Notes under the pieces: generated by a model
Database searches by the model: none
Seen by the model: only the letters and a program-made list of their open reading frames with translations
Told to the model about the DNA's origin: nothing
Part shown: positions 15,688 through 30,397 of the stretch, piece after piece
How the letters are laid out: each line of letters opens with the position of its first letter
How positions within the stretch are numbered: the stretch's first letter is position 1
From: Candidatus Nanohalobium constans
GTDB lineage: Archaea; Nanohalarchaeota; Nanosalinia; Nanosalinales; Nanosalinaceae
Assembly (NCBI RefSeq): GCF_009617975.1
Contig: NZ_CP040089.1
Location: 270,001 to 302,000 of the forward strand
Direction: 5' to 3'
DNA length: 32,000 nt
Made by a program: the position numbers and the translations under genes

Positions 15688-16098
15688 CTATTTTTCTAAA
15701 GTTACATATTGGAAGTCTTCTTTTCTGGGTATTCCCATAGGTAATTCATCTATCTTCCAGTATCCTTCCACCCAACTGGCGGAATAAGAATCGGCTCTGA
15801 AATATTCAGGGTGTTGAAAGTCTCTGGTGAGGGTTGTATCACTATATCCTGTCTTTTCTGCCCATGTGTCTTCTATTTCGTCTTCTGGGACTGAGATGTC
15901 TAGTACGATTTTAGTTTCGCCAGTTACTCCTCTTGGATTTGTTCCTGCATATTCTGCTGCATCTGAAAAATCTCCGCTGAACCATAAGTAGCGTGTTTGT
16001 GCTTCTGCATCTTTGGTTCTGGCTTTTATTGTTCCATCGGCTTCCAGAGCTCTAAATGCTTCATGGCTGGTGCCAGAAAAGAGTTGTTTCCAAGACAT
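15688..16098 (-). CDS. hypothetical cytoplasmic protein
   Basis: 136 aa, no signal peptide, no motif I recognise. Convergent with the thermosome gene. Confidence 0.55.
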   Translation of the reverse strand: MSWKQLFSGTSHEAFRALEADGTIKARTKDAEAQTRYLWFSGDFSDAAEYAGTNPRGVTGETKIVLDISVPEDEIEDTWAEKTGYSDTTLTRDFQHPEYFRADSYSASWVEGYWKIDELPMGIPRKEDFQYVTLEK

Positions 16099-16218
16099 AG
16101 TAACTGATTTTAGGGCTGCTCTTTAAGTTCTTAAGTTATAATAATCTGGTTGGATTGACCATGCCTTATTTATACCGGGAGCGGGAATTTTTGGGTATAA
16201 CGAGGTTTTGAGAAAATT

Positions 16219-17004
16219 ATGTCTGATGATGAGGTTGAGCTTGGTGGTAAGCAGGGTGCCGGTGATGATTATGAGGTTGTTCCGGTTGGCCCTTTGAGGA
16301 AACTTGAGAGAAGAGTTGATGAGCTGCAGGAGCAGAATCAGCAAGGCGGTGGTTCCGGTGGTGCTGATGATGAACTGGTTCGTGATGTTTTGGATATCAT
16401 GAAGTCGAATCAGAAAATCGTCAATGACATGACTGAGTCAACTCACGAGCTCAAAAACTCGGTTGAAGACCTGACTCATAAGATGGATGAGGTCGTTGAT
16501 AATATGAATAATTTCATGGATCTCTTGACCGAGGCTTCTGAGATGGATATGGAAGGTGAGATGGTTGGTGATATGGAAGGTCGTATCGCTGAGGCTATTG
16601 GATCTAAGATGGATGATGTTGCTCAGGATATGAAGCAATCGAATCAGGAAGTAGTCGAGCATTTAAACGATATTAATGATAGTTTGAGGAAGAGTTATGC
16701 TTCTCAGAACAAGGATGGCTTGGTTTCCCGGTCTCGTGATCAGAATGTTGGAGGTCAACAGGTTCAGTCTAGTTCGCAGCCTCAGCCGCAATCTCAGTCT
16801 CAGAGACAATCTCGGTCACAGTCTCAGGGCATGGATGGCGGTCAGTCAAGTCCTCAGCAGTCAATGGGCGATCAGGGTCGTGATTCTATAGGTAAAAACC
16901 GTTCACGTCAGCAAGGCAATGATTTAGATCTTGGTTCCGATAATTCAGATCGAATGGATAGGCTGAGAGAAAGATTTAACAAGACAGGAAAAAATGAAGA
17001 GTAA
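16219..17004 (+). CDS. acidic coiled-coil protein with Gln/Ser-rich low-complexity tail; first gene of the pilus-like locus
   Basis: 261 aa with no signal or TM. The central region has a heptad-like pattern rich in D/E/M (VNDMTESTHELKNSVEDLTHKMDEVVDNMNNFMDLL). The tail reads SSQPQPQSQSQRQSRSQSQ. The 3' end overlaps the first pilin gene by 11 nt. Confidence 0.7.
   Translation: MSDDEVELGGKQGAGDDYEVVPVGPLRKLERRVDELQEQNQQGGGSGGADDELVRDVLDIMKSNQKIVNDMTESTHELKNSVEDLTHKMDEVVDNMNNFMDLLTEASEMDMEGEMVGDMEGRIAEAIGSKMDDVAQDMKQSNQEVVEHLNDINDSLRKSYASQNKDGLVSRSRDQNVGGQQVQSSSQPQPQSQSQRQSRSQSQGMDGGQSSPQQSMGDQGRDSIGKNRSRQQGNDLDLGSDNSDRMDRLRERFNKTGKNEE
16765..16827 (+). repeat. imperfect CAG/TCT-rich hexanucleotide-like low-complexity tract encoding (S/P/R)Q repeats
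   Basis: Sequence: cagtctagttcgcagcctcagccgcaatctcagtctcagagacaatctcggtcacagtctcag. Confidence 0.6.
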
Positions 17005-17485
17005 AGGCGTTTCACCTGTTGTGGCTACTGTATTACTTGTTGGTATAGCTATTGCTTCTGTTTCCTCTGCTGCCATAGTTCTTCAAGGAACTTTAACTGA
17101 TATCCAGGGTAATGTTGAGGACTGGATTGGGCAGGAGGATAGGGAAGAGTCTACGAAGATCAGTGTAGATTACGGCTATAATCAAAGTGATTATCTGCTT
17201 GTTGACCTGAGGAATACAGGCTCTTCATCCATAGAAATCGTAGAGGATGGCGGTACTTCGCTAAACATGTATCTTGAGGGGGTGCCGGAAGACTGGAGCT
17301 TTGTATCAGGAAGCCCATACGAGTCTCAGAGCACGGTGATACTCGATCCGTCCGCTACATTGACGCTTAACACTACTGAAAAATTCCCGGTTGAAGGAGA
17401 GAGTGTTGAAGTCGAGTTTGCAGGTCCTTATGAAACATCAACAACCTATATCTGCTTCAACGAAAACGGTGCCTGTGAGAGCTGA
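16994..17485 (+). CDS. archaeal type IV pilin (PF07790/DUF1628-type N-terminus)
   Basis: 163 aa. Class III signal MKSKG|VSPVVATVLLVGIAIASV. The C-terminus carries two Cys (YICFNENGACES). Confidence 0.85.
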   Translation: MKSKGVSPVVATVLLVGIAIASVSSAAIVLQGTLTDIQGNVEDWIGQEDREESTKISVDYGYNQSDYLLVDLRNTGSSSIEIVEDGGTSLNMYLEGVPEDWSFVSGSPYESQSTVILDPSATLTLNTTEKFPVEGESVEVEFAGPYETSTTYICFNENGACES

Positions 17486-17545
17486 AGCACTTAGCTAGAA
17501 CCTATTTAAATCAGGTTTATACAAATAATACGTAAGAGGTATATT

Positions 17546-18124
17546 ATGTTTAAACAGAGCAAGGGTATAACGCCCGTAATCGCGATCGTGCTACTACTAC
17601 TCGTCACCGTAGGCGCAGTAGGAGTAGTATACACACAGTTCCAAAACATAGCAGACCAGGGAGACACGCAGTTCAGCACAGACGCTAAAAACACCGAAGT
17701 CTCTCTAGTCTCAATCAGTGAGAACTCAGACAACAATGACTCCATGCAGTTGACATGGACAAACAAGCAGGACTCAGTAGAGATCAACCAGACAGAGATG
17801 CTTGAAATGACTTTCATCCCAGAAGATGGAGAGTCAGGTGTGCTTTTCCAGCAGGTAGAAACAGGAAGCTTCAACTCGCTTGATGTAGCAAGCAGTGATT
17901 TCCCATCTGGAGCATCCTCAACGCCTCAGATAGAATGTTTCAATGAAGAGGCTATTGCTGAAGAAGATCATCTGGTGACGACAGGAGAGACAGTTACCTG
18001 TGACACCAATGTCAAGTTCCCTGGTGCAACTGAGAGTATTTCAGTTGTTGTCAATGTCAAAGGTGGAGACAAGTCTTGGACTTACGAGTGTTCGCCTTCC
18101 ACATCTAGCAGTCAGACCTGTTAG
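17546..18124 (+). CDS. archaeal type IV pilin (PF07790-type N-terminus)
   Basis: 192 aa. MFKQSKG|ITPVIAIVLLLLVTVGAVGVVY. AAGAGGT lies before the ATG. Four Cys, with the last residue being Cys (SSSQTC). Confidence 0.85.
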   Translation: MFKQSKGITPVIAIVLLLLVTVGAVGVVYTQFQNIADQGDTQFSTDAKNTEVSLVSISENSDNNDSMQLTWTNKQDSVEINQTEMLEMTFIPEDGESGVLFQQVETGSFNSLDVASSDFPSGASSTPQIECFNEEAIAEEDHLVTTGETVTCDTNVKFPGATESISVVVNVKGGDKSWTYECSPSTSSSQTC

Positions 18125-18148
18125 ATAGGTAGGTTGCTCGAGCCCCCA

Positions 18149-18184
18149 TCTTTTCTCTTCTTTCTTTTTTCCCTCTTGTTTTAT
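18149..18184 (+). terminator. oligo-T rich putative archaeal terminator after the two PF07790-type pilin genes
   Basis: Sequence tcttttctcttctttcttttttccctcttgtttt immediately after the stop at 18122-18124. It is followed by the TATA-like TTTTATATTC (18179-18188), about 25 nt before ATG 18212. Confidence 0.35.
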
Positions 18185-18211
18185 ATTCTCAGATATTTGA
18201 ATTGGTTTTAC

Positions 18212-18868
18212 ATGAAGGGTCAAACACAGGCTGTAACTGCTGTTCTAATCACTGGCGTCATTGTAGGAGGAATTGCTTCGGCTTATGTATGGGGTGTTCC
18301 CCTGATTGAGAAGAGGCAAAGTCAGTCCGAGCTTCAATCAGTGGAGTCAAGCTCCGAGCAGCTCTTGGAAACGATTAGATCTGTCTCTAATGAAGGAAGT
18401 CAGAGCAGCAGTGAAGTTGATTTCTCTTTAAATAATGGACGGGTTGAGGTGAACTCGGAAGAAAACTATATTGATATCATAACTTTCTCAGACTCCTCAA
18501 ATTATCCTAAAGGGTCTTGGAGTCTTCTTGAAGGTAGCAGCCGACAGGGTCTTTCCTTCGGCGCAGGTAAATACGCGTTAAGAGGTGAGGATTCCTCAGG
18601 TGTTCTCGCAGTGAAGGCACGGAAAGGAGGTAACTCTCTTATCAGGTACAGGGTTGAGTTCAGAAACCTCAGGACTGATACTGTTTCTGGCTCCGAGTTA
18701 AGACTGGTGGATTTACAGGTTTCGGGAGCTGATGAGGCATCTGGCGATGTAACGGTTGAATTAACGAATAAAGGCGAAGAAGTGGACTCAGGTGACGACA
18801 GCTTCACCTTGTCAAGCGGCGATGAACTGGTAAGGAGAAGAACTGTAGTGGAGGTCGATCTGAGGTGA
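18212..18868 (+). CDS. class III signal (KGQ-type) pilin-like protein
   Basis: The track ORF 18134-18868 starts at TTG inside the T-tract. The in-frame ATG 18212 gives MKG|QTQAVTAVLITGVIVGGIASAYVW, a short prepilin-type leader. Confidence 0.7.
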   Translation: MKGQTQAVTAVLITGVIVGGIASAYVWGVPLIEKRQSQSELQSVESSSEQLLETIRSVSNEGSQSSSEVDFSLNNGRVEVNSEENYIDIITFSDSSNYPKGSWSLLEGSSRQGLSFGAGKYALRGEDSSGVLAVKARKGGNSLIRYRVEFRNLRTDTVSGSELRLVDLQVSGADEASGDVTVELTNKGEEVDSGDDSFTLSSGDELVRRRTVVEVDLR

Positions 18869-18874
18869 TTCACA

Positions 18875-19288
18875 ATTAAAGGACAGAACCTTGCTGTTGA
18901 AACCGTCTTTACATTTGGCCTTGGGCTTGTAGCAGCCATAGGAATAATAGCTCTGTTCAATAACTACAGGGCGGGCGCCCTAGACTCAGTTGAGCCTGAT
19001 CAAGCAGAAATAATTTCATCAGATCTAAAAACGGGTTTAAACACGGTTTCCCAGACAGGAACCTCGCCTAACAGCAGTTTTTACTATGATGAAAAGTTTC
19101 CTGAAAGATTGGCAGGAAATCAGTATGTTTTAAGACTGGAAGGCGATAGAATACTGGTTGAGTCGGGAGGAGAAACTTACTCTACGCCGCTGACAGGGTT
19201 TAAGGATTATGATTTGTCGGGAAGTATTCGAGGTGGAGAGGCAACTATTTTCAAGAGAGGAAACAATATTAAACTGAGGTCGTCCTGA
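18875..19288 (+). CDS. class III signal pilin-like protein with apparent ATT start codon (absent from ORF track)
   Basis: The frame is open from 18869 to TGA 19286-19288, with no ATG/GTG/TTG before the hydrophobic helix. ATT AAA GGA CAG at 18875 reads (M)KG|QNLAVETVFTFGLGLVAAIGIIALF. GAGGTGAT (18862-18869) lies 6 nt upstream. Confidence 0.55.
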   Translation: MKGQNLAVETVFTFGLGLVAAIGIIALFNNYRAGALDSVEPDQAEIISSDLKTGLNTVSQTGTSPNSSFYYDEKFPERLAGNQYVLRLEGDRILVESGGETYSTPLTGFKDYDLSGSIRGGEATIFKRGNNIKLRSS

Positions 19289-19290
19289 AA

Positions 19291-21003
19291 ATGCCTAATG
19301 CTAACTTGTTAAATATAATTGGAAATCTCAGGAAGGTTAAGCATCCTGAGGCATTTGAGAAGAAGGAAGAGGAGAGCGATGTTGATGAGGGTGAAGGAAT
19401 CGAACTCCCATCGCCTGGAGAGTTCAAGGAGGAGTATGTTGAAGAGACAACGGACGATGAAGATTTAACCGATGTCGATATCACTTATCCATTGGTGCCT
19501 GCTGACCCTGATGAAGGTGAGATGGTGTATGCCTGGGCACATATCCACTGGAATGAAAGAGAAGGAGAGCTCGTCTACGAAGTCGTCGAACCTGAAAGAA
19601 CACCGGAACTGGATCAAAAGATTGAACACATAACCGACATAATGGAGAGATCATTTGACATCGACTTCAACCAGTTAGAGGGCGGTGAAGCCGACGAATA
19701 CCTGACAGAGAAAATAGACATGATAGTAGACAAATACGATATATCACTTACAGATGAGCAGAGAGAAGTTGTCAGGTACTACACTAAAAGAGACTTTGCT
19801 GGACTAGGAAAACTTCAACCATTGATGAACGATACAGAGGTTGAAGATATCTCCTGCGACGGAGTAGACATTCCTGTATACGCATACCACAGAAACCCGC
19901 AGTACGGATCAGTTAAAACAAATATCGAATGGCACAGCCAAGACGAACTGGACAGCTTCGTTATGAAACTGGCACAGAGGTGTGGTAGAAGCATATCCGT
20001 CTCAAGCCCGCTTCTCGACGGTTCGTTACCCGACGGTTCTCGTGTACAGGCAACGCTCGCAACAGATATTGCTAGAAAAGGTTCAAACTTTACTATAAGA
20101 CGTTTCACAGAAGATCCATTGACTCCGATCCACATGATGGACTATGAGACGGAGAACGCTCAGATGCTGTCTTATCTTTGGACTTTGGTAGAACATGGAA
20201 AATCTACGCTTGTATGTGGAACAACAGGAGCAGGAAAGACCTCTCAGTTGAATGCTCTTTCGCTTTTTATCCGTCCTGAGAAGAAGATTGTCTCGATTGA
20301 GGATACACCGGAGCTGCGTCTTCCTCATGATCACTGGGTGCCGGAGGTTGCCCGTTCAGGTTTCGGAAGCAGTGCTGAGTCTGGTGGGGAAGTATCTATG
20401 GACAATCTATTGAAGGAGTCTCTGCGTCAGCGTCCAGAATACATTATTGTTGGTGAGGTTCGTGGTGAGGAAGCCTATATCCTGTTCCAGCAGATGGCTA
20501 CAGGTCACACAGGGCTCTCAACTATCCACGCTGACAGCCTTGAGATGCTTATGGATCGCCTCACAACAGATCCTATTAATCTTTCCGGAAGCCTTATTGA
20601 GACTCTGGACTGTATAATGCTTATTAAGAGGATTAGAAGGGATGGAAGTTATATCCGTCGTATCACCGGGCTTTATGAGGTTCTTGGTTACGATAAGAGG
20701 AGAGGTATTGATTCTAACAAGGTGTTTGGCTGGGATCCGCAGAATGATCAGTACAGGACTGAGAACAAGTCTGTCCTGCTTAAGGATATTGCTGATCAGT
20801 CTGGTATCGATTATTCGAAGATTAAAAGAGATCTTAGGAACAAGCAGCATGTTTTGAACTACATGCAGGAGGAGCAGATCAAGCATTACCGTGAGGTTGG
20901 AGATATCATCTCGAGATATTACAGTGATCCTAAATCAGTGATGGAGGATGTTGGGCAAACATTTAATTCTCAAGATGACGAATTAGAAGTCAAGGATGCT
21001 TGA
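19291..21003 (+). CDS. FlaI/PilB/GspE-family type IV pilus (secretion) ATPase
   Basis: 570 aa. Walker A GTTGAGKTS, Walker B region PEYIIVGEVRGEEA, His box GHTGLSTIHA. It has an acidic N-terminal extension. Confidence 0.92.
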   Translation: MPNANLLNIIGNLRKVKHPEAFEKKEEESDVDEGEGIELPSPGEFKEEYVEETTDDEDLTDVDITYPLVPADPDEGEMVYAWAHIHWNEREGELVYEVVEPERTPELDQKIEHITDIMERSFDIDFNQLEGGEADEYLTEKIDMIVDKYDISLTDEQREVVRYYTKRDFAGLGKLQPLMNDTEVEDISCDGVDIPVYAYHRNPQYGSVKTNIEWHSQDELDSFVMKLAQRCGRSISVSSPLLDGSLPDGSRVQATLATDIARKGSNFTIRRFTEDPLTPIHMMDYETENAQMLSYLWTLVEHGKSTLVCGTTGAGKTSQLNALSLFIRPEKKIVSIEDTPELRLPHDHWVPEVARSGFGSSAESGGEVSMDNLLKESLRQRPEYIIVGEVRGEEAYILFQQMATGHTGLSTIHADSLEMLMDRLTTDPINLSGSLIETLDCIMLIKRIRRDGSYIRRITGLYEVLGYDKRRGIDSNKVFGWDPQNDQYRTENKSVLLKDIADQSGIDYSKIKRDLRNKQHVLNYMQEEQIKHYREVGDIISRYYSDPKSVMEDVGQTFNSQDDELEVKDA

Positions 21004-21871
21004 AGATTACTCTGATTTCTGCTACGAAGCAGTAGGTAGCATAGCCTTAAAGTATATAGACAACTTTGAAGGCTTAAGAAGACAGTTATCCAAGGCTAAC
21101 ATAGAGATAACCTTGCCAGAGTATGTAAGCATGATGTTTTTCACATCAGCCGCGGTTGCGGTAGGCTCCCTCCTGTTCTTTGGATTAATTTTTACCTTGT
21201 CCATGGGACTACCCGGACTGGTGTTTGCGTTTGTTTTAACAATGATACTGGGCTCTTTTTCTGCTGCAGCGTTTTATCTCTATCCGGGTATAATGATGAA
21301 GAGCAGAGCATCTAAAATCAGGGATACCTTACCTTTCGCCACAATGTATCTTTCAACCTTGGCAGGTACAGGAACTTCACTTCCTGAGATCTTCAAGAAC
21401 CTGGCAGAAGTAGATGAATACGGTGAAGTATCCAAAGAGGCGGAGAAAATTTCAAGAGACATAGAAACATTTGGAATGGATGCAGGTGAAGCAATGGAGA
21501 GAGCAGCAAACAGAACACCGAGCGAGGATTTCAAAGAGCTTGTATGGGGAATAAACCATGTTATAACTACTGGAGGATCTTTGAAGCAGTTTTTACAACA
21601 GAGATCTGAGCGCTTGATGGAAGACTACCGTAGAAGAGTTGAGGAATTCTCGGAGCAGCTTTCATTGCTTGTTGAAATGTATATAACTGTTATAATCGTA
21701 GGTTCGATTATTTTCACTTCCATGACGGCTGTAATAAGCTCTTTCTCCTCCAGTATATCGCCCAGTCTCTTGGTTAATATACAGGTTGTAGCAGTATTCT
21801 TTGGAATCCCTATGATTTCGGCAATGTTCATAATACTGGTTGATGGCATGTCACCAGGAGGTATAAGATAA
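20996..21871 (+). CDS. type IV pilus platform protein, FlaJ/PilC/TadB-like (corresponds to the N-terminal T2SSF half)
   Basis: 291 aa. TM pair, then the cytoplasmic domain LPFATMYLSTLAGTGTSLPEIFKNLAEV...GMDAGEAMERAANRTPS...TTGGSLKQFL, then TMs. Overlaps the ATPase gene by 8 nt. Confidence 0.8.
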   Translation: MLEDYSDFCYEAVGSIALKYIDNFEGLRRQLSKANIEITLPEYVSMMFFTSAAVAVGSLLFFGLIFTLSMGLPGLVFAFVLTMILGSFSAAAFYLYPGIMMKSRASKIRDTLPFATMYLSTLAGTGTSLPEIFKNLAEVDEYGEVSKEAEKISRDIETFGMDAGEAMERAANRTPSEDFKELVWGINHVITTGGSLKQFLQQRSERLMEDYRRRVEEFSEQLSLLVEMYITVIIVGSIIFTSMTAVISSFSSSISPSLLVNIQVVAVFFGIPMISAMFIILVDGMSPGGIR

Positions 21872-22902
21872 TGGACTTCTTCACAGACGACGAGTACGAA
21901 CCAGGCTACTCGATAGAGCAGAAGGTAATCTACGGATCCCTAGGCATAGGCGGAGGAATAACGATCACAGGGATGATGATATACTTCCTAGGCTCTGTAA
22001 GGGTTGGAGGAGCCCTACTAATACTTGGAATGATAGCTGGTCTCCTTCCGTACGGCGTCCTAAGCTTCCTGAAAAACCGGGCGGTCAGAGAAATGGAGAA
22101 CCAGTTCCCATCATTCCTGAACGACCTAGCAGAATCAAAGAGGGGAGGTATGACGATACTGAAAGCCTTCGAATCAGCTAAGGACACCGACTACGGAAGA
22201 CTGAACTCCGAGGTCGAAAAAGTACATACAGACCTCACATGGGGAATACCTTTCCCAGAAGTAATGGAAAGATTCTCAAAAAGAATGAAAGCAAGCCCTG
22301 TAATCCAGGAATCTCTCTCCATCATTATCCAGAGCTTTCAGAGCGGAGGAAACATCACAGACACAATCGAGTCCGTAGCAGAAAATGCTTCCGACCTAAA
22401 AGAAGTACTACAGAGCAAGAGATCCCAGCTTAAGCAACAGCTCTTCATAATGTATATTATCTACTTCCTGTTTATAGGGATTACAATAGGAATCTATGTC
22501 ATGCTTTCACAGCTTCTCGGACTTGGAAGTCAGGAAGCTGGGGCACTTCAGGGAATAGGAGAAGTCTTGGGTGGTGACGGAGGGTCGGCAGGACCGACAA
22601 ACTTCTGCGGAAAAGATATTCTAGCCGCCAGACCTTTCTGCTCAACAGCCAAGATATTCGGATTCATACCCACTAATATCACAGATCTTGGTAGCAGCTA
22701 CGCCACCAAGTACGCTTACGGAAAGATGGCATACTACAAATCGCTGCTTTTCACCATGCTCATGGTTCAAGGAATGTGTACCGCAGCAGTATCAGGACAG
22801 ATAAGCGAGGGAAGCCCTTCAGCAGGAGTAAAACACGCAATCATAATGATGCCAATAGCGTTCATAGTATTCATGCTGGTCCTAAGACCTATGGGGGTGT
22901 AG
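21871..22902 (+). CDS. type IV pilus platform protein, FlaJ/PilC/TadC-like (corresponds to the C-terminal T2SSF half)
   Basis: 343 aa. FPSFLNDLAESKRGGMTILKAFESA...WGIPFPEVMERFSKRM...QSGGNITDTIESVA, then TMs. TAATG overlap with the previous gene, in a different frame. Confidence 0.8.
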   Translation: MDFFTDDEYEPGYSIEQKVIYGSLGIGGGITITGMMIYFLGSVRVGGALLILGMIAGLLPYGVLSFLKNRAVREMENQFPSFLNDLAESKRGGMTILKAFESAKDTDYGRLNSEVEKVHTDLTWGIPFPEVMERFSKRMKASPVIQESLSIIIQSFQSGGNITDTIESVAENASDLKEVLQSKRSQLKQQLFIMYIIYFLFIGITIGIYVMLSQLLGLGSQEAGALQGIGEVLGGDGGSAGPTNFCGKDILAARPFCSTAKIFGFIPTNITDLGSSYATKYAYGKMAYYKSLLFTMLMVQGMCTAAVSGQISEGSPSAGVKHAIIMMPIAFIVFMLVLRPMGV

Positions 22903-22905
22903 AAA

Positions 22906-23757
22906 ATGCCTTCAACTAAGGGACAGTCCACAATCGAATTCCTCGGAGGAATGTTCATAGTAATACTGGCATTGGTAGCCGCCCTGTCAGCCAACTCCGG
23001 TAAAATACCTGAGTTTGAGTCAAGCGTCGAACAATCCGCCAGAAACATGGAGATATACTCGCTTACAGAAAAAATACTGAGCAAACCAGGATACCATACT
23101 AATGGAACGGGGGGTACAGAGTGGGAAGACAATATATCCCATACCTCGGAGTTTGGACTGGCTAAAGACTACCTCGTTCTAGAAAAAGAGAAAATCGATG
23201 CACTGCAAACCACCGGCGATTCAAGCTTCAACTACAGCCAGTTCAAAAAAGTTACAGGAGCTGACAACCAGTACCACTTCACATTCATCTGGCAGCCAAT
23301 AGTTGAAACATCAAACTCATTCACCAGAACAGAACCTGAAAACGGTATAGACGAGCCCGGCACCACAGGAAATCCGGACCCACTTTACTCCCAAGCTGAA
23401 AACAGGGTGCACTACGGAAACTTCACAATACAAGCACAGACCTACTGGTTCCTGGTAACAGCCCATGACGGAGTTTACAACACTACAAGAATCTCCACAG
23501 ACAAGGACTTTGACTCTGAGTTGACACTAGGAACAGGAGACACATACAGTTTAGCAGGTACAGAATTTGAACTTCAGCGGTTCCAAAACCGGGAAAGAAA
23601 GCCTGGAGCCGCAGTAGTACTCTCAAATGAGCTTAAATCCTTCGGACCATCATCAGAAAACGTAGATCAAAGTGTAACCAAACTCAACCGCTACGCTGTC
23701 CTTGAAGAGCCTTTAACAGATTCTGAGCCAATAAGAATTGAGGTATTATCATGGTAA
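22906..23757 (+). CDS. class III signal peptide (PF04021-like) pilin-like protein
   Basis: 283 aa. MPSTKG|QSTIEFLGGMFIVILALVAALSA, with Glu at +5 after the predicted cleavage site. Confidence 0.8.
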   Translation: MPSTKGQSTIEFLGGMFIVILALVAALSANSGKIPEFESSVEQSARNMEIYSLTEKILSKPGYHTNGTGGTEWEDNISHTSEFGLAKDYLVLEKEKIDALQTTGDSSFNYSQFKKVTGADNQYHFTFIWQPIVETSNSFTRTEPENGIDEPGTTGNPDPLYSQAENRVHYGNFTIQAQTYWFLVTAHDGVYNTTRISTDKDFDSELTLGTGDTYSLAGTEFELQRFQNRERKPGAAVVLSNELKSFGPSSENVDQSVTKLNRYAVLEEPLTDSEPIRIEVLSW

Positions 23758-25529
23758 AGAAAAAAGGACTAGGATATTCGATCGAGGCAATTGTAGCGAT
23801 TGCAACAGTTTTCATATTCATCTTTGGCGCTGTCAACGTACCTCAAGGACAGGACTGGAACAGCTTCAGAAGCCAGGTATCTGCCAACGACTTAACATAC
23901 ACTCTTCAAGAAGCAGGATACATAAACCATGCTTTAAGAAACGGCGAGACAGGATCTATCCAGACAGCTTTCTCAACTATAACAGAGAGAGACGTAGAGG
24001 TATCAGGATTGGTCTCCAACCTTCCAATAAACGATAACCGCGTAGCTTTCCACGTAGTTAACTCAGACAGGTACAATCAAAACCTGGATGAAGTTGAATC
24101 AAGCGATAAATGTGAAGGGGATTTAGAAGAGATAAAATCCAGGTCAGATCAACCTGTTCTAAGATCTGAAGGAGGATTAGAGAACAACCGTCTCTACATA
24201 GGTGATCTAGATCCTCAGATAAGCGGAGGTAACTCTGAACAGGACTACGACTCGGTATGGGTCGACAACGGTACAAAATGCCAGTTCTCTAACAGCGAGG
24301 GACCTTTCAACATTGAAGAGATTTTCAAATGGGATAACAACTACTATGATATTAAATCAATTGAATCTGACAAGTTAAGGATCTACAATGCTACACAGCC
24401 AGTCAGATTTAGGGACATGTTCGATCGTGATGTTAACAGTGTTAAGACGTTTACTTCTGTTGATACTGTTAACTTTACCCGTCTCGACAGAAGAAGCTAT
24501 GATACTGCAGTCATAAGAAGAGAGGAAGCAGTTCAAGAGATCGACACTGATACCGATAAGAGGGAAAAGTTTGAAAACTTCCTGAAACAGGGATCAGCTC
24601 TAATTTTAGCTAATCTGTCAAGCAGCAGTTTTGAAAACGGTGACTTCCTAGATGATACCGGGTTTGAATACGTTGATGTCTCATATCAGGGTTCCTATGA
24701 TGGAGACTCGGCAGAATCAGGTTTTGATTCAAGTACGTCCGCTCAAGAAGCACAAACCAGTTTCCTGGGCTTGGAGGGAGAAGAAGACAATCTGGAGATG
24801 GCTCCTTCAACCAAGGTCATATCTGACACTGAGAGAACACTGGAATCTGGAAAGGCACTGGTTAAATCCTCTAAGCTCTACGACTTCAGCGAGTGGAACA
24901 GGGAAAAACAGAACATGAACTCTGTAACTCCAGAGGAGGTAGAAGGAAAGCCTGACAGCAAATGCCTAGACAATAAACCAGAGGCATTGACAGAGGCAGT
25001 CTTCGACTTCCCGGATTTTGATTACAACGTGTTGAACGCGGAACTAGGTACATCCGATAGTTACTGCAACAACAATAACGTCAGAGCGGTAAAGGTTGAC
25101 CTAGATCGTGATGGAGACTACTTAGATGAGAATGAAGGTCCGTTCCTGAACGGTGATCAAATCACTATAGATAACAGAGTCTACAACCTGAACATTACAG
25201 TATACGACCCTGATCCGAATATAGGCTGCGACCAAGAAGGAGGCTGCGTAAGTTTCGAATACCGAGGAGATGAAAAAGTCGAAGTCATTCCTAGGAGAAG
25301 ATCTCTCAAAAACCTGCCCTCCGGAGGAAAAATAGCCTTAACCTCATACAGACAGAATTATGACGCTGAAAGCTTGAAGGCGATTGTATCTACTATTTAC
25401 TGGCTTAGAGGCAGCCAAACAAGTTTCACAGGGCAGAAAACTCCGGGCGAAACATCTACGAAAACCTACTCAAGCATCAAAGAGGAAACATATCTTCCAT
25501 ACGAAATAAACTTCAGGTGGGGTCAGTGA
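23751..25529 (+). CDS. large (592 aa) pilin-like protein with class III-type N-terminus and acidic extracellular domain
   Basis: MVKKKG|LGYSIEAIVAIATVFIFIFGAV. Overlaps the previous gene by 7 nt. The large D/E/N-rich domain has several Cys. Confidence 0.7.
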   Translation: MVKKKGLGYSIEAIVAIATVFIFIFGAVNVPQGQDWNSFRSQVSANDLTYTLQEAGYINHALRNGETGSIQTAFSTITERDVEVSGLVSNLPINDNRVAFHVVNSDRYNQNLDEVESSDKCEGDLEEIKSRSDQPVLRSEGGLENNRLYIGDLDPQISGGNSEQDYDSVWVDNGTKCQFSNSEGPFNIEEIFKWDNNYYDIKSIESDKLRIYNATQPVRFRDMFDRDVNSVKTFTSVDTVNFTRLDRRSYDTAVIRREEAVQEIDTDTDKREKFENFLKQGSALILANLSSSSFENGDFLDDTGFEYVDVSYQGSYDGDSAESGFDSSTSAQEAQTSFLGLEGEEDNLEMAPSTKVISDTERTLESGKALVKSSKLYDFSEWNREKQNMNSVTPEEVEGKPDSKCLDNKPEALTEAVFDFPDFDYNVLNAELGTSDSYCNNNNVRAVKVDLDRDGDYLDENEGPFLNGDQITIDNRVYNLNITVYDPDPNIGCDQEGGCVSFEYRGDEKVEVIPRRRSLKNLPSGGKIALTSYRQNYDAESLKAIVSTIYWLRGSQTSFTGQKTPGETSTKTYSSIKEETYLPYEINFRWGQ

Positions 25530-25846
25530 ATAAAGGACAGTTCATGATCATATCCGTAATAATAGCAAGCCTCATCACCATAAGCCTAGCAGCAACCATA
25601 TCACAGATCCAGCTACAGAGACACAATGTAGAAGAAACCTCGCTTCATACAAACAAAATAGAGACGGAAATAGAGAAAATAACAGCCGATGGCGTAATAA
25701 CAACTAAAGAGGAAAGAAACTTCAGAAAACTACTGGGATACATCGACAACTACGAGACAGAACCGGTATTCAACCACTCAGGTCCATGCATCAAAGTAAA
25801 AATGCGGTCCACAGACCGCAGAATAGAAACAGAATGCATCAACTAG
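25526..25846 (+). CDS. small pilin-like protein
   Basis: The track ORF starts at GTG 25517. GTG 25526 (GTGA overlap with the upstream stop) gives (M)NKG|QFMIISVIIASLITISLAA. It ends in a CTAG shared with the convergent rfcL stop. Confidence 0.6.
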   Translation: MNKGQFMIISVIIASLITISLAATISQIQLQRHNVEETSLHTNKIETEIEKITADGVITTKEERNFRKLLGYIDNYETEPVFNHSGPCIKVKMRSTDRRIETECIN

Positions 25847-28760: not shown

Positions 28761-29540
28761 GTGGGGTCTTCAAAAGGACAGTCAGCAGTAGAGTACTTAA
28801 CAACCTACGGATGGATGGTTCTAGTCCTAACTGTAGCGGGATCGGCAGTTTTTACTACGGTCTCGCCAGGCTGCCAGGTAAGTGTTCAAGCAGGACCCGC
28901 CAGCTCTTTAACTGCCTCAGAATCAGGTCTTGAAGAAGGCAACACTCTTTCAGTTATCTTACGTAATTCTGAGTCATCTCTGATTGAAATCCGCTCGGTA
29001 AAACTCGAAGGACGCCAAGAATCAGCAAAAAACACGCAAATACCGGTCGGAGAAGAGAAAAAATACGAAGTAACCTCGGTTAAACCTTCTGGAGAATGCC
29101 AAGAATACGACATGACCTTAGCATACAGTACACAGAACTTACCAAACCTTGAGCAAAAATTCACGGTCAGAGGCAAATTCACTCTTCCTCAGATAATAGT
29201 AGAAAAGCTGTTTGTTGCTGGAGACACTATAGAAGAGATTGAGACACGCGAAACTGTTCTGCCGACAGGAAACAATACAATGTGCTTCGGAGACGACTGC
29301 GGGACCACTGAAGGAGGAGAATTAACAGGCTCAGAACAATACCTGAATATCTCCGGCGACTCAATGCAAGGACCACTCAACACAGACGCATTAAATGCTA
29401 ACTGCTACGGCGATCTATGCAGCTCAACTCAGACCAGTGACCTAGGATATGTAAGCAGCCAAAACAATACACTAAATGGAACACTTAATGTCACGGAAGT
29501 TAAACCAATACAAAATCTTTGTGTAGGAGGAACATGCTAA
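28761..29540 (+). CDS. class III signal peptide (PF04021-like) secreted protein with C-terminal CxGxxC loops
   Basis: 259 aa, GTG start. (M)GSSKG|QSAVEYLTTYGWMVLVLTVAGSAVF. The C-terminal third contains MCFGDDC, NCYGDLC and the terminal NLCVGGTC, plus EQYLNISGDSMQGPLN. Confidence 0.75.
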   Translation: MGSSKGQSAVEYLTTYGWMVLVLTVAGSAVFTTVSPGCQVSVQAGPASSLTASESGLEEGNTLSVILRNSESSLIEIRSVKLEGRQESAKNTQIPVGEEKKYEVTSVKPSGECQEYDMTLAYSTQNLPNLEQKFTVRGKFTLPQIIVEKLFVAGDTIEEIETRETVLPTGNNTMCFGDDCGTTEGGELTGSEQYLNISGDSMQGPLNTDALNANCYGDLCSSTQTSDLGYVSSQNNTLNGTLNVTEVKPIQNLCVGGTC

Positions 29541-30397
29541 TGAAAAAAGCAATAATGATTTTAGCACTGATAATATGCGTATACACTGCTACTGCAGATA
29601 TGGAATTCCGATCCAGCACGCCTATAGATGTCTACAGCCAATTCAACATGCATAACAATCAAATAACAAACCTTCAAAACCCTGGGGCAGACTCACACGC
29701 GCTAAACCTTGGATACGCTAACGAAAAATACCTTCAAAGAAACGGAGACAGCATAGACGGCAACCTCGACATGCAAAACAACAGAATACTAAACTTGCCA
29801 ACTCCAGCATCCGGGACAGATCCAGCAACCAAAAACTATGTCGATACTCAGGTAACATCAACACCACAATCACTATCTCAAGTGCTCGAAGAAGAAAACA
29901 CAGCCAATCAGAGCATCGATATGGATCAAAACCGTATAAGAAACCTGGCACAGCCAAAAACCAGCAACGACTCAGTAACACTTGGATACGCCAACAACGC
30001 GTACCTTCAAAGAAATGGAGACAGCATAGACGGAAACCTCGACATGAAAGGAAACTCCATCAACAACATCGGAGAAATAACCGGAAACAACAACATAAAC
30101 AACAGCATACAATTCAAATCAAACAGCATAAACTTCAATCAGGATGGAGCAGGAACAATACTTAAACTCCAAGAAACAGGGCAAATCAACGCCACAAACT
30201 CCAGGATTACAAATCTGAAAGACCCAAGCAATCCACAGGACGCAGCAACACAAAGCTATGTACAAAGCTACTCCAAAACCAACGACCAATACATAGGAAA
30301 CAATAAGACACACCAAGTAGGCGGCAACATCAACATGACAGACCAAAACATCACCACAAACACCCAAAACCGGATATGCACAGGCAACCAATGCTAA
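29534..30397 (+). CDS. Sec-signal secreted repeat protein with tail-fibre/adhesin-like motifs
   Basis: The track ORF starts at 29519. ATG 29534 (or 29540, a TAATG overlap) follows GTAGGAGG. MLMKKAIMILALIICVYTATA is a signal peptide. Repeats of N-x-I-x-N-L-x-x-P-(4-5)-D-x-x-x-x-x-Y and YLQRNGDSIDGNLDM. It ends in RICTGNQC. Confidence 0.75.
   Translation: MLMKKAIMILALIICVYTATADMEFRSSTPIDVYSQFNMHNNQITNLQNPGADSHALNLGYANEKYLQRNGDSIDGNLDMQNNRILNLPTPASGTDPATKNYVDTQVTSTPQSLSQVLEEENTANQSIDMDQNRIRNLAQPKTSNDSVTLGYANNAYLQRNGDSIDGNLDMKGNSINNIGEITGNNNINNSIQFKSNSINFNQDGAGTILKLQETGQINATNSRITNLKDPSNPQDAATQSYVQSYSKTNDQYIGNNKTHQVGGNINMTDQNITTNTQNRICTGNQC
29708..30052 (+). repeat. two ~73-bp direct repeat copies (about 29708-29780 and 29980-30052) inside the repeat-protein gene
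   Basis: cttggatacgctaacgaaaaataccttcaaagaaacggagacagcatagacggcaacctcgacatg versus cttggatacgccaacaacgcgtaccttcaaagaaatggagacagcatagacggaaacctcgacatg. Both encode LGYAN..YLQRNGDSIDGNLDM. Confidence 0.8.

Follow-up and report, generated by a model that had tools for sequence, protein, structure and literature searches.

Eleven co-directional, tightly packed genes in the archaeon Candidatus Nanohalobium constans LC1Nh probably encode an adhesive type IV pilus. The genes (g01 to g11; Table 1) occupy positions 16219-25846 on the plus strand of the window, by which we mean the whole stretch of 32,000 nucleotides (nt) that was analysed (positions 270,001 to 302,000 of NZ_CP040089.1). They specify one coiled-coil protein (CCP), two PilA-type pilins, five other proteins with class III signals, one PilB/ArlI-family ATPase and a split platform. 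Prepilin peptidase aside, we read the locus as encoding every part of a non-archaellum type IV pilus machine of the clade-2 kind, in the version carried by cluster-2 DPANN archaea, and with an adhesive role; we put the probability of this reading at about 0.72. The finding itself is already known: the locus, including its coiled-coil gene, was described across DPANN in 2024 as a candidate host-contact apparatus, and the genes in the window are Locus 1 of Hamm 2024 (PMC11291902) in Ca. Nanohalobium constans, with no essential difference. Two things are new here. First, the accessory prepilins appear to belong to the families that follow pilB-pilC in haloarchaea, which would anchor the DPANN locus in clade 2. 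Second, we remove the FlaC, ArlX and sigma-1 readings of CCP, report an N-terminal motif of that protein, and present confident models of g09 and g10 that have no solved match.

Gene content and class III signals

A preliminary description, made from the sequence, had called this region a non-archaellum type IV pilus-like locus in a DPANN-like genome, and our analysis supports that view. It had listed eleven same-strand genes separated by overlaps or gaps of a few nucleotides. All eleven were recovered at the positions it gave, and the spacing holds, with neighbours either overlapping by 1-13 nt or lying 2-6 nt apart, except for 60 nt ahead of g03 and 87 nt ahead of g04. All seven N-termini that it had recognised as prepilin-type (g02-g05 and g09-g11) are present and pass a FlaFind-like rule, defined as [KR][GA] followed by a hydrophobic stretch, against a background of two weak, unrelated matches among the window's 80 six-frame open reading frames (ORFs) of at least 80 amino acids (aa). 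Each of the seven is kept in about 43 orthologous nanohaloarchaeal loci, a degree of conservation that places the signals far beyond chance. The motif of g02 is conserved in 38 nanohaloarchaeal orthologues and that of g11 in 36, and g05, g09 and g10 each have a Glu at position +5 or +6. Three components of an archaeal type IV filament system, namely an ATPase, a platform and class III filament proteins, are all found in the locus.

The two PilA-type pilins differ in how they are recognised. TIGR02537 is passed by g02 (21.1 bits against a cut-off of 20) and by no other protein of the locus. The first 30 mature residues of g03 are nearly invariant across nanohaloarchaea, and pilins of its ITPVIA type occur in one to three tandem copies in other DPANN loci. 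We propose that g03 is probably the major pilin, since it combines the most conserved N-terminus, a type that is duplicated in other DPANN, TATA-like elements of its own and a T-rich run after it.

The ATPase and the split platform

The protein encoded by g06, an ATPase of the hexameric type, contains a T2SSE domain (1e-31) and a PilB3_C domain (31.4 bits against a cut-off of 27), and the translation preserves Walker A (GTTGAGKT), Walker B, the Asp box and the His box intact. Among solved relatives it scores highest against afGspE of Archaeoglobus fulgidus (2OAP; 364 bits), with lower scores for Sulfolobus FlaI (264 bits) and for CpaF (147 bits). Makarova 2016 (Fig. S4) assigns afGspE to Clade 2, arCOG01817. 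The products of g07 and g08 both match T2SSF (5e-19 and 4e-16) and align to positions 5-241 and 294-461, respectively, of the 555 in ArlJ. By this alignment, g07 and g08 are the N- and C-terminal halves of one ArlJ/PilC platform protein that is split between two genes, and the split is conserved in every locus that reaches past g07, as judged by tblastn and by reading the ORFs of related loci. The T2SSE and T2SSF matches therefore support the FlaI/PilB ATPase and the two platform genes of the preliminary description, with the refinement that the two genes make up one platform. DPANN systems with split platforms have been catalogued (Sivabalasarma & Albers 2026), and many clade-2 loci have two tadC genes (Makarova 2016), as in Aciduliprofundum, where the clade-2 locus comprises arCOG02911, FlaI, TadC and TadC (Makarova 2016 tables).

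The same components could be read as a reduced, rotary archaellum, in which g06 and the platform would be ArlI and ArlJ, g02 and g03 divergent archaellins or ArlF/G, CCP a protein like ArlX or ArlC, and the filaments of LC1Nh cells true archaella. Indeed, FlaI is the best NCBIfam model for g06 and ArlJ the best for the platform, several CCP homologues are named 'archaellum component FlaC' by JGI, KEGG-type annotation names one of the pilins FlaF, weak matches to ArlX (E = 0.02) and ArlF (E = 0.04) can be found, and the LC1Nh filaments have been called 'long archaella' (La Cono et al.). However, the equivalog cut-offs are missed widely (394 bits against 550 for FlaI, and 108 against 550 for ArlJ), the ATPase is nearer to the non-archaellum afGspE than to FlaI, the accessory genes fall in families that flank haloarchaeal pilB-pilC, and the ArlX match does not set CCP apart from coiled coils in general (see below). 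No archaellin, KaiC/ArlH, ArlF/G or ArlX/ArlCDE family was found in the locus genes or, with Pfam, in 19 other window ORFs (the majority of the ORFs of 100 aa or more that lie beyond the locus). No locus protein matches PF01917 (Arch_flagellin) at E <= 1, and the ArlF match (E = 0.038) lies over the hydrophobic N-terminus of g02, with nothing stronger. These scans agree with the preliminary description, which had seen no FlaB-type flagellin, FlaH, FlaF/G, FlaC/D/E or prepilin peptidase in the window and had held that homology to flagellin, FlaH, FlaF or FlaG would make this an ordinary archaellum operon; none was found above threshold. For the proteome of Ca. Nha. antarcticus, which includes FlaI, FlaJ and archaellin-annotated proteins, it was likewise argued that the structure is pilus-like, not an archaellum, and possibly involved in host interaction (Hamm 2019). 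We consider an archaellum improbable.

Conservation of the locus across DPANN

A scan for the ATPase in one genome per species yielded 80 loci (L001-L080). Approximately 43 of them are nanohaloarchaeal, and there tblastn recovers nearly the full set of eleven genes, in unchanged order and flanked by a thermosome gene upstream and by the genes for the large and small RFC subunits downstream; identity among these loci is 56-85% for the ATPase and only 21-60% for the pilin-like genes. In the loci of Aenigmatarchaeota, Undinarchaeota and other DPANN, whose ATPases are approximately 50% identical, tblastn still picks up the thermosome gene, g01, g04, the ATPase gene and the two halves of the platform. 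Across the 80 loci, g09-g11 were not found by tblastn outside Nanohaloarchaeota; they were seen there by position and N-terminal motif. Reading the ORFs of these non-nanohaloarchaeal loci reveals one to three ITPVIA-type pilins and a g05-like gene of approximately 140 aa and, after the platform, a protein of 150-220 aa that begins KG/Q..E[FY] (the slash marks the cleavage site), then one of 430-670 aa with KG/.....E, and sometimes a third with KG/QF. The synteny comparison across Nanohaloarchaeota and DPANN suggested in the preliminary description thus shows a locus conserved in Nanohaloarchaeota, Aenigmatarchaeota and Undinarchaeota.

Two side observations concern the loci themselves. In the window, a minus-strand ORF of 136 aa (15688-16098) stands between the thermosome gene and g01. 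Neither Pfam nor tblastn against the 80 loci gave a match for it and, judged by this distribution, it is a lineage-specific insertion into the conserved synteny. Separately, a metagenome-assembled genome titled 'Colwellia polaris' (L039; JBLGBK010000003.1) contains a complete nanohaloarchaeal locus with an ATPase 77% identical to g06 and with thermosome and RFC flanks; from this gene content, the bin is mislabelled or contaminated.

Accessory prepilins and their haloarchaeal relatives

DPANN genomes have been reported to hold pilus islands of unrecognisable pilins (Makarova et al. 2019). The g09 and g10 products are 100% identical to proteins recorded as hypothetical in Ca. Nanohalobium constans. 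Taken alone, the accessory proteins of this archaeon gave weak Pfam matches for g04 and g05 and none for g09 and g10; we scanned sets of their orthologues against the same database. DUF7289 (PF23960) is matched by 22 of the 31 members of the g04 family (best E = 3.9e-8), DUF7266 (PF23928) by 23 of the 26 members of the g05 family (best E = 1.1e-8), and DUF7287 (PF23958) by 14 of the 24 members of the g09 family (best E = 6.2e-6). The g10 orthologue set has no direct Pfam family match. This family is narrow (130 clusters among 1.84e9 representatives in a profile search), and of its 46 most remote relatives, 10 match DUF7288 over its N-terminal part; hhalign aligns a profile of these remote relatives with a haloarchaeal DUF7288 protein at 75% probability (E = 2.5e-5). 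For g11, one of 15 family members matches DUF7261 (E = 0.02), and the hhalign alignment with a haloarchaeal DUF7261 sequence covers the N-terminus only (A/G-Q-[FM]-[FML]-[IL]-I). Comparing the nanohaloarchaeal g09, g10 and g11 profiles with single haloarchaeal DUF7287, DUF7288 and DUF7261 sequences by hhalign gave probabilities of 1-5%. A literature search for the DUF names of the accessory families returned nothing.

The same families stand together in haloarchaeal plasmid loci that we picked by ATPase match at approximately 40% identity. On a Halobaculum halophilum plasmid, the order is a Pilin_N pilin, a hypothetical protein, a 989-aa ATPase, a 679-aa PilC, DUF7287, DUF7288, DUF7261, DUF7266 and DUF7289; on a Salinibaculum plasmid, DUF7288, DUF7266 and DUF7289 come after PilC. 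This suggests that the DPANN locus carries the haloarchaeal pilB-pilC accessory set, with the DUF7289 and DUF7266 genes moved ahead of the ATPase and the trio after the platform in the same order. The number and size range of the accessory pilins, which had seemed unusual for so small a locus, are therefore not exceptional: the same five-family set follows pilB-pilC in haloarchaea, clade 1 loci have at least five minor pilins each (Makarova 2016), and Archaeoglobus clade-2 loci hold five to six pilin-family genes (arCOG06117, 04652, 07777, 03926, 02911 and 02911; Makarova 2016 tables).

Structure prediction for the 283-aa and 592-aa proteins, suggested in the preliminary description, gave confident folds for both and a solved match for neither. 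The AlphaFold2 model of g09 (pLDDT 89.7, pTM 0.79) has an N-terminal helix (residues 5-59) and a beta-rich head, a generic pilin shape; Foldseek found no match for it in the PDB (best E = 0.046, query-normalised TM-score approximately 0.12). The g10 model (pTM 0.71) has a mixed alpha/beta core at residues 95-555 with a pLDDT of approximately 90, and Foldseek found no match for it in the PDB (best E = 0.31) or BFVD. Over both models, these searches returned nothing below E = 0.04, with query-normalised TM-scores of at most 0.18. The g09 orthologue in L036 (13605-15056) is 484 aa long and contains an extra Laminin_G_3 domain (6.5e-16). Remote relatives of g10 are fused to Laminin_G, GEVED, PKD, fn3, Ig-like and CBM_5_12 domains, with Laminin_G_3 matches down to 5.9e-64, and several g10 orthologues reach 829-870 aa (829-859 aa in L015, L024 and L038) against approximately 590 aa in most. 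Since relatives carry lectin or adhesin domains and some g10 orthologues are longer, an adhesive role for g09 and g10 is indirectly supported, and we regard g10, with its predicted head of approximately 460 residues and no solved fold match, as a candidate adhesin. Orthologues of g11 also vary in length (289-314 aa in L007, L031, L032, L039 and L040, against 109 aa here), and an ILEI domain is matched by two of the 15 g11-family members scanned.

These domains also bear on the possibility that the locus encodes an uptake or transfer device, that is, a competence-like pilus or pseudopilus for the import of host DNA or nutrients, or one that helps to open the cytoplasmic bridge to the host, with adhesion secondary. 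Nanohaloarchaeota are without nucleotide, lipid and amino-acid biosynthesis (La Cono et al.), import of DNA or nutrients by DPANN pili has been speculated on in the literature, and there are many minor pilins, with the Glu at +5/+6 in g05, g09 and g10 resembling that of bacterial Com/T2SS pseudopilins. Nonetheless, the window contains no ComEA/ComEC-like, nuclease or channel gene and no second (retraction) ATPase, the domains carried by g09 and g10 relatives are lectin or adhesin domains, not DNA-binding ones, and the same accessory families occur in free-living haloarchaea. We judge such a device to be about as improbable as an archaellum.

The coiled-coil protein

The preliminary description had treated g01 as an orphan. 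We find instead that it is the conserved first gene of the locus in Nanohaloarchaeota, Aenigmatarchaeota and Undinarchaeota, usually beside the thermosome gene: a g01 orthologue opens the locus in most of those for which the upstream flank was recovered (68 of the 80). The absence of a signal peptide and the QS-rich coiled coil that had been noted for g01 were both seen again, together with the absence of a transmembrane (TM) helix. A motif near the N-terminus, [DE]-Y-E-[VIL]-[VI]-P-x-x-P-x-R-[KR]-L-E-[KR]-R, is conserved across DPANN and is followed by an N-Q-[KQ]-[IL]-V-D helix; for g01 we give it as D-Y-E-V-V-P-x-x-P-x-R-K-L-E-R-R. At the C-terminus, R-x-[RK]-L-R-E-[KR]-F is common to nanohaloarchaea (for g01, R-x-R-L-R-E-[KR]-F). 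Across the three DPANN phyla, no other conserved gene is as characteristic of the locus as that for CCP. The protein is helical and specific to DPANN and, since it has no export signal, presumably cytoplasmic. In Sulfolobus, the coiled-coil gene arlX stands at the start of the archaellum operon, a position like that of CCP.

A profile search with CCP returned at least 536 related clusters, some of them named automatically 'archaellum component FlaC' or 'methyl-accepting chemotaxis protein' (MCP). We tried and rejected several identities suggested by such names and matches. CCP matches ArlX/FlaX at E = 0.02-0.03 in Pfam and NCBIfam, but ArlX is matched by six of 41 CCP homologues among 252 coiled-coil families. 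When the PDB was searched with a profile, the matches were designed coiled coils and MCP bundles. We take the matches to ArlX, FlaC and MCP to be generic coiled-coil noise, and FlaC_arch is not among the Pfam families listed for the 41 homologues. Hamm 2024 read CCP as sigma-1-like or nucleoporin-like, where we see generic coiled-coil similarity. By these comparisons, the FlaC, ArlX and sigma-1 readings are coiled-coil artefacts. A 2024 re-analysis of the Ca. Nha. antarcticus proteome picked up coiled-coil proteins of these loci (Hamm 2024, PMC11291902).

We give very little weight to the idea that CCP has no connection with the pilus and is a thermosome-associated (prefoldin-like) or housekeeping protein that happens to lie between the thermosome and pilus genes, for although a thermosome gene stands just upstream in nanohaloarchaea and many Aenigmatarchaeota and CCP has no specific pilus-related domain, its stop overlaps the start of g02 by 11 nt, an overlap that also occurs in nanohaloarchaeal orthologues, a non-conserved minus-strand gene separates it from the thermosome gene in the window, two loci (L044 and L059) keep CCP beside pilins with no adjacent thermosome, no prefoldin family is among the Pfam families listed for CCP homologues, and a second CCP accompanies a second ATPase/TadC pair in 'Locus 2' (Hamm 2024, PMC11291902).

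As an observation in its own right, the linkage of the thermosome to CCP and the pilus genes holds across Nanohaloarchaeota and many Aenigmatarchaeota with no obvious functional tie. A GroEL gene was also shown in Locus 1, and the linkage was left unexplained (Hamm 2024, PMC11291902).

Comparison with known archaeal filaments

The closest known system is Locus 1 of Hamm 2024 (PMC11291902, Fig. 4), which has the same CCP, PilA/'FlaF' proteins, CpaF-type ATPase, TadC and chaperonin neighbour, in the same taxa (Nanohaloarchaeota, Aenigmatarchaeota and Undinarchaeota) and with the same proposed role in host interaction. The main text of that paper does not single out the three class III proteins 3' of the platform and does not mention the links to DUF7287, DUF7288, DUF7266 and DUF7289. 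The preliminary description had considered that the gene set might already be a described and characterised pilus family; it is described, as Locus 1, and has no experimental characterisation.

The best reading of the locus is a type IV pilus of the euryarchaeal clade-2 kind, rather than an archaellum or an Epd (clade 1) pilus, a placement suggested by the afGspE-nearest ATPase and by the accessory families shared with haloarchaeal loci. With clade-2, or System 2, pili (Makarova 2016 Fig. 4B; haloarchaeal loci), it shares PilB3_C, a PilA-type pilin and four or five accessory families, if the arCOGs of the one are assumed to correspond to the DUFs of the other. By contrast with the haloarchaeal loci, the platform here is split, DUF7289 and DUF7266 lie upstream of the ATPase and not at the end, g10 exceeds the DUF7288 proteins in size by a factor of two to three, g06 is without the long N- and C-terminal extensions of the 989-aa ATPase, and CCP is present, with none in the haloarchaeal loci examined. 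System 2 as defined by Sivabalasarma & Albers 2026 has a single platform, and here the platform is split.

Among characterised filaments, the PilA1-6 / PilB3-PilC3 system of Haloferax volcanii has the same [KR]G/xTPV pilin N-terminus and a clade-2 PilB3_C ATPase, but the H. volcanii adhesion pili have pilins encoded in trans, a single-gene platform and no CCP, and they have been characterised experimentally, whereas the locus described here is known from sequence. The archaellum shares a homologous ATPase and platform and subunits with class III signals; archaellin, ArlH and ArlF/G are the parts that set it apart. The Epd pili of Methanococcus maripaludis (clade 1, or System 1) resemble the locus in the eleven-gene scale of the operon, in having two platform genes and several minor pilins, and in some minor-pilin N-termini, with Q at +1 and E near +5. 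However, no EppA, Epd major pilin of approximately 70 aa, DUF2341 adhesin or MinD was found in the locus or in the window ORFs scanned, and the g06 ATPase resembles clade-2 and clade-3 proteins and is not a deep outlier.

Putative transcription units and the start of g05

TATA-like elements and T-rich runs were read directly from the sequence (Table 1). Together with conservation, they suggest three transcription units, g01-g02, g03 and g04-g11. Scans for sigma-70 promoters and intrinsic terminators gave counts near the shuffled expectation; these models are uninformative for an archaeon.

The frame of g05 opens directly 3' of the g04 stop and contains no ATG, GTG or TTG; its only plausible start is the ATT at 18875. 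In 29 orthologues, the codon before KGQ is ATG (14), TTG (10) or GTG (5), and in four others (L014, L022, L026 and L027) only ATT or ATA is available. Given these start codons at the same position, we consider g05 to be a real gene that uses a near-cognate start in a minority of lineages, which suggests that near-cognate initiation may be tolerated in a tightly coupled operon (region 18869-18880).

Table 1. Genes of the pilus locus and candidate promoter elements, in window coordinates. A slash marks the cleavage site of class III signals.
Feature	Position	Strand	Basis or remark
g01, coiled-coil protein (CCP), 261 aa	16219-17004	+	No signal peptide or TM helix; Q/S-rich disordered tail
g02, PilA-type prepilin, 163 aa, MKSKG/VSPVVATVLL	16994-17485	+	TIGR02537 and motif conservation
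g03, PilA-type prepilin, 192 aa, KQSKG/ITPVIAIVLLLLVTVGAVGVVYTQFQ	17546-18124	+	Near-invariant N-terminus; candidate major pilin
g04, accessory prepilin, 218 aa, MKG/QTQAVTAV	18212-18868	+	DUF7289 relative
g05, accessory prepilin, 137 aa, (M)KG/QNLAVE	18875-19288	+	DUF7266 relative; non-canonical ATT start
g06, PilB/ArlI-family secretion ATPase, 570 aa	19291-21003	+	T2SSE, PilB3_C, intact catalytic motifs
g07, platform (PilC/ArlJ/TadC) N-terminal half, 291 aa	20996-21871	+	T2SSF
g08, platform C-terminal half, 343 aa	21871-22902	+	T2SSF
g09, accessory prepilin, 283 aa, TKG/QSTIEF, Glu at +5	22906-23757	+	DUF7287 relative
g10, large accessory prepilin, 592 aa, KKKG/LGYSIEA	23751-25529	+	Candidate adhesin; N-terminus linked to DUF7288 via intermediates
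g11, small accessory prepilin, 109 aa, NKG/QFMIISV	25517-25846	+	DUF7261 counterpart by position only
TATA-like element TTTATA, 45 nt 5' of g01 ATG	16169-16174	+	By eye from sequence; candidate g01-g02 promoter
Two TATA-like elements (TTTAAA, TTTATA), 25-40 nt 5' of g03 ATG	17505-17521	+	By eye; candidate own promoter of g03
T-rich run (18150-18172) 3' of g03, then TTTATA (18180-18185), 32 nt 5' of g04 ATG	18150-18185	+	By eye; candidate terminator and g04-g11 promoter

Neighbouring genes

Approximately 3 kb 3' of the locus, a plus-strand gene (28761-29540) encodes a 259-aa protein with a class III signal-like N-terminus (MGSSKG/QSAVEYLTTYGWMVLVL) and a Cys-rich C-terminus. It contains a Q-x-x-x-E-Y-L motif like that of DUF361/EppA substrates, has no Pfam match and narrowly misses the FlaFind-like rule; by tblastn, only L002 and L043 of the 80 loci hold relatives, at other positions. 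The end of this gene is overlapped by another on the plus strand (29519-30397), whose 292-aa product has a Sec-type signal peptide (MKKAIMILALIICVYTATA), contains the stretch GYAN..YLQRNGDSIDGNLDM twice, and matches the N-terminal domain of the phage T7 tail fibre (PF03906, E = 6e-12). This protein could be a surface adhesin or derived from a virus. No tRNA or Rfam family was found in the window.

Discussion

We propose the following model for the apparatus. A prepilin peptidase encoded elsewhere would cleave the prepilins after KG, and the g06 ATPase and g07/g08 platform would extrude a filament composed mainly of g03, with g02 as a second pilin. The products of g04, g05, g09, g10 and g11 may make up a module of low abundance that primes the filament or forms its tip, much as bacterial minor pilins and PilY1 do; the 460-residue head of g10 would be the adhesin. 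CCP may serve the motor as a scaffold or regulator on its cytoplasmic side. With such a filament, Ca. Nanohalobium constans would attach to a surface or to its host, Halomicrobium; the filament may be what was imaged on LC1Nh cells as 'long archaella / pili-like stalks' that unwind into thin filaments, the function of which was left open (La Cono et al.).

Several points weigh against the adhesive clade-2 pilus that we favour. No A24 prepilin peptidase was found in the locus genes or in the 19 other window ORFs scanned. The PF07790 (Pilin_N) scores of g02 and g03 are 12.4 and 17.9 bits against a cut-off of 25.2 (E = 0.006 for g03), so that neither pilin reaches the threshold of this model. The top NCBIfam model for g06 is FlaI, and its clade is assigned by proxies and not from a tree. 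The link of g10 to DUF7288 is transitive and restricted to the N-terminal 60-75 residues or so, and that of g11 to DUF7261 consists of position and a short motif. Conservation and the TATA-like and T-run motifs are all that single out g03 as the major pilin and delimit the three transcription units. Finally, the connection of the locus to the observed filaments or to host attachment is one that we infer: contact with a host cell, the role put forward in the preliminary description, is also the hypothesis of Hamm 2019 and Hamm 2024, and it has been inferred, not shown.

A bolder version of the model would have this locus alone build the LC1Nh stalks, with the five accessory prepilins an ancient tip module shared by DPANN and clade-2 Euryarchaeota, g10 its host-recognition adhesin, and CCP (YEVVPxxPxRKLEKR) a new motor component that regulates filament dynamics as a functional analogue of ArlX/ArlCDE. 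We think this unlikely as a whole, if less so than the archaellum or the uptake device.

DPANN archaea rely on physical contact with their hosts. Almost all cluster-2 DPANN archaea carry the pilus locus, and several proteins of the locus have been detected in the proteome of Ca. Nha. antarcticus. Ca. Nanohalobium constans is one of the few cultivated nanohaloarchaea, and its filaments have been imaged, which makes it a good experimental handle on this apparatus.

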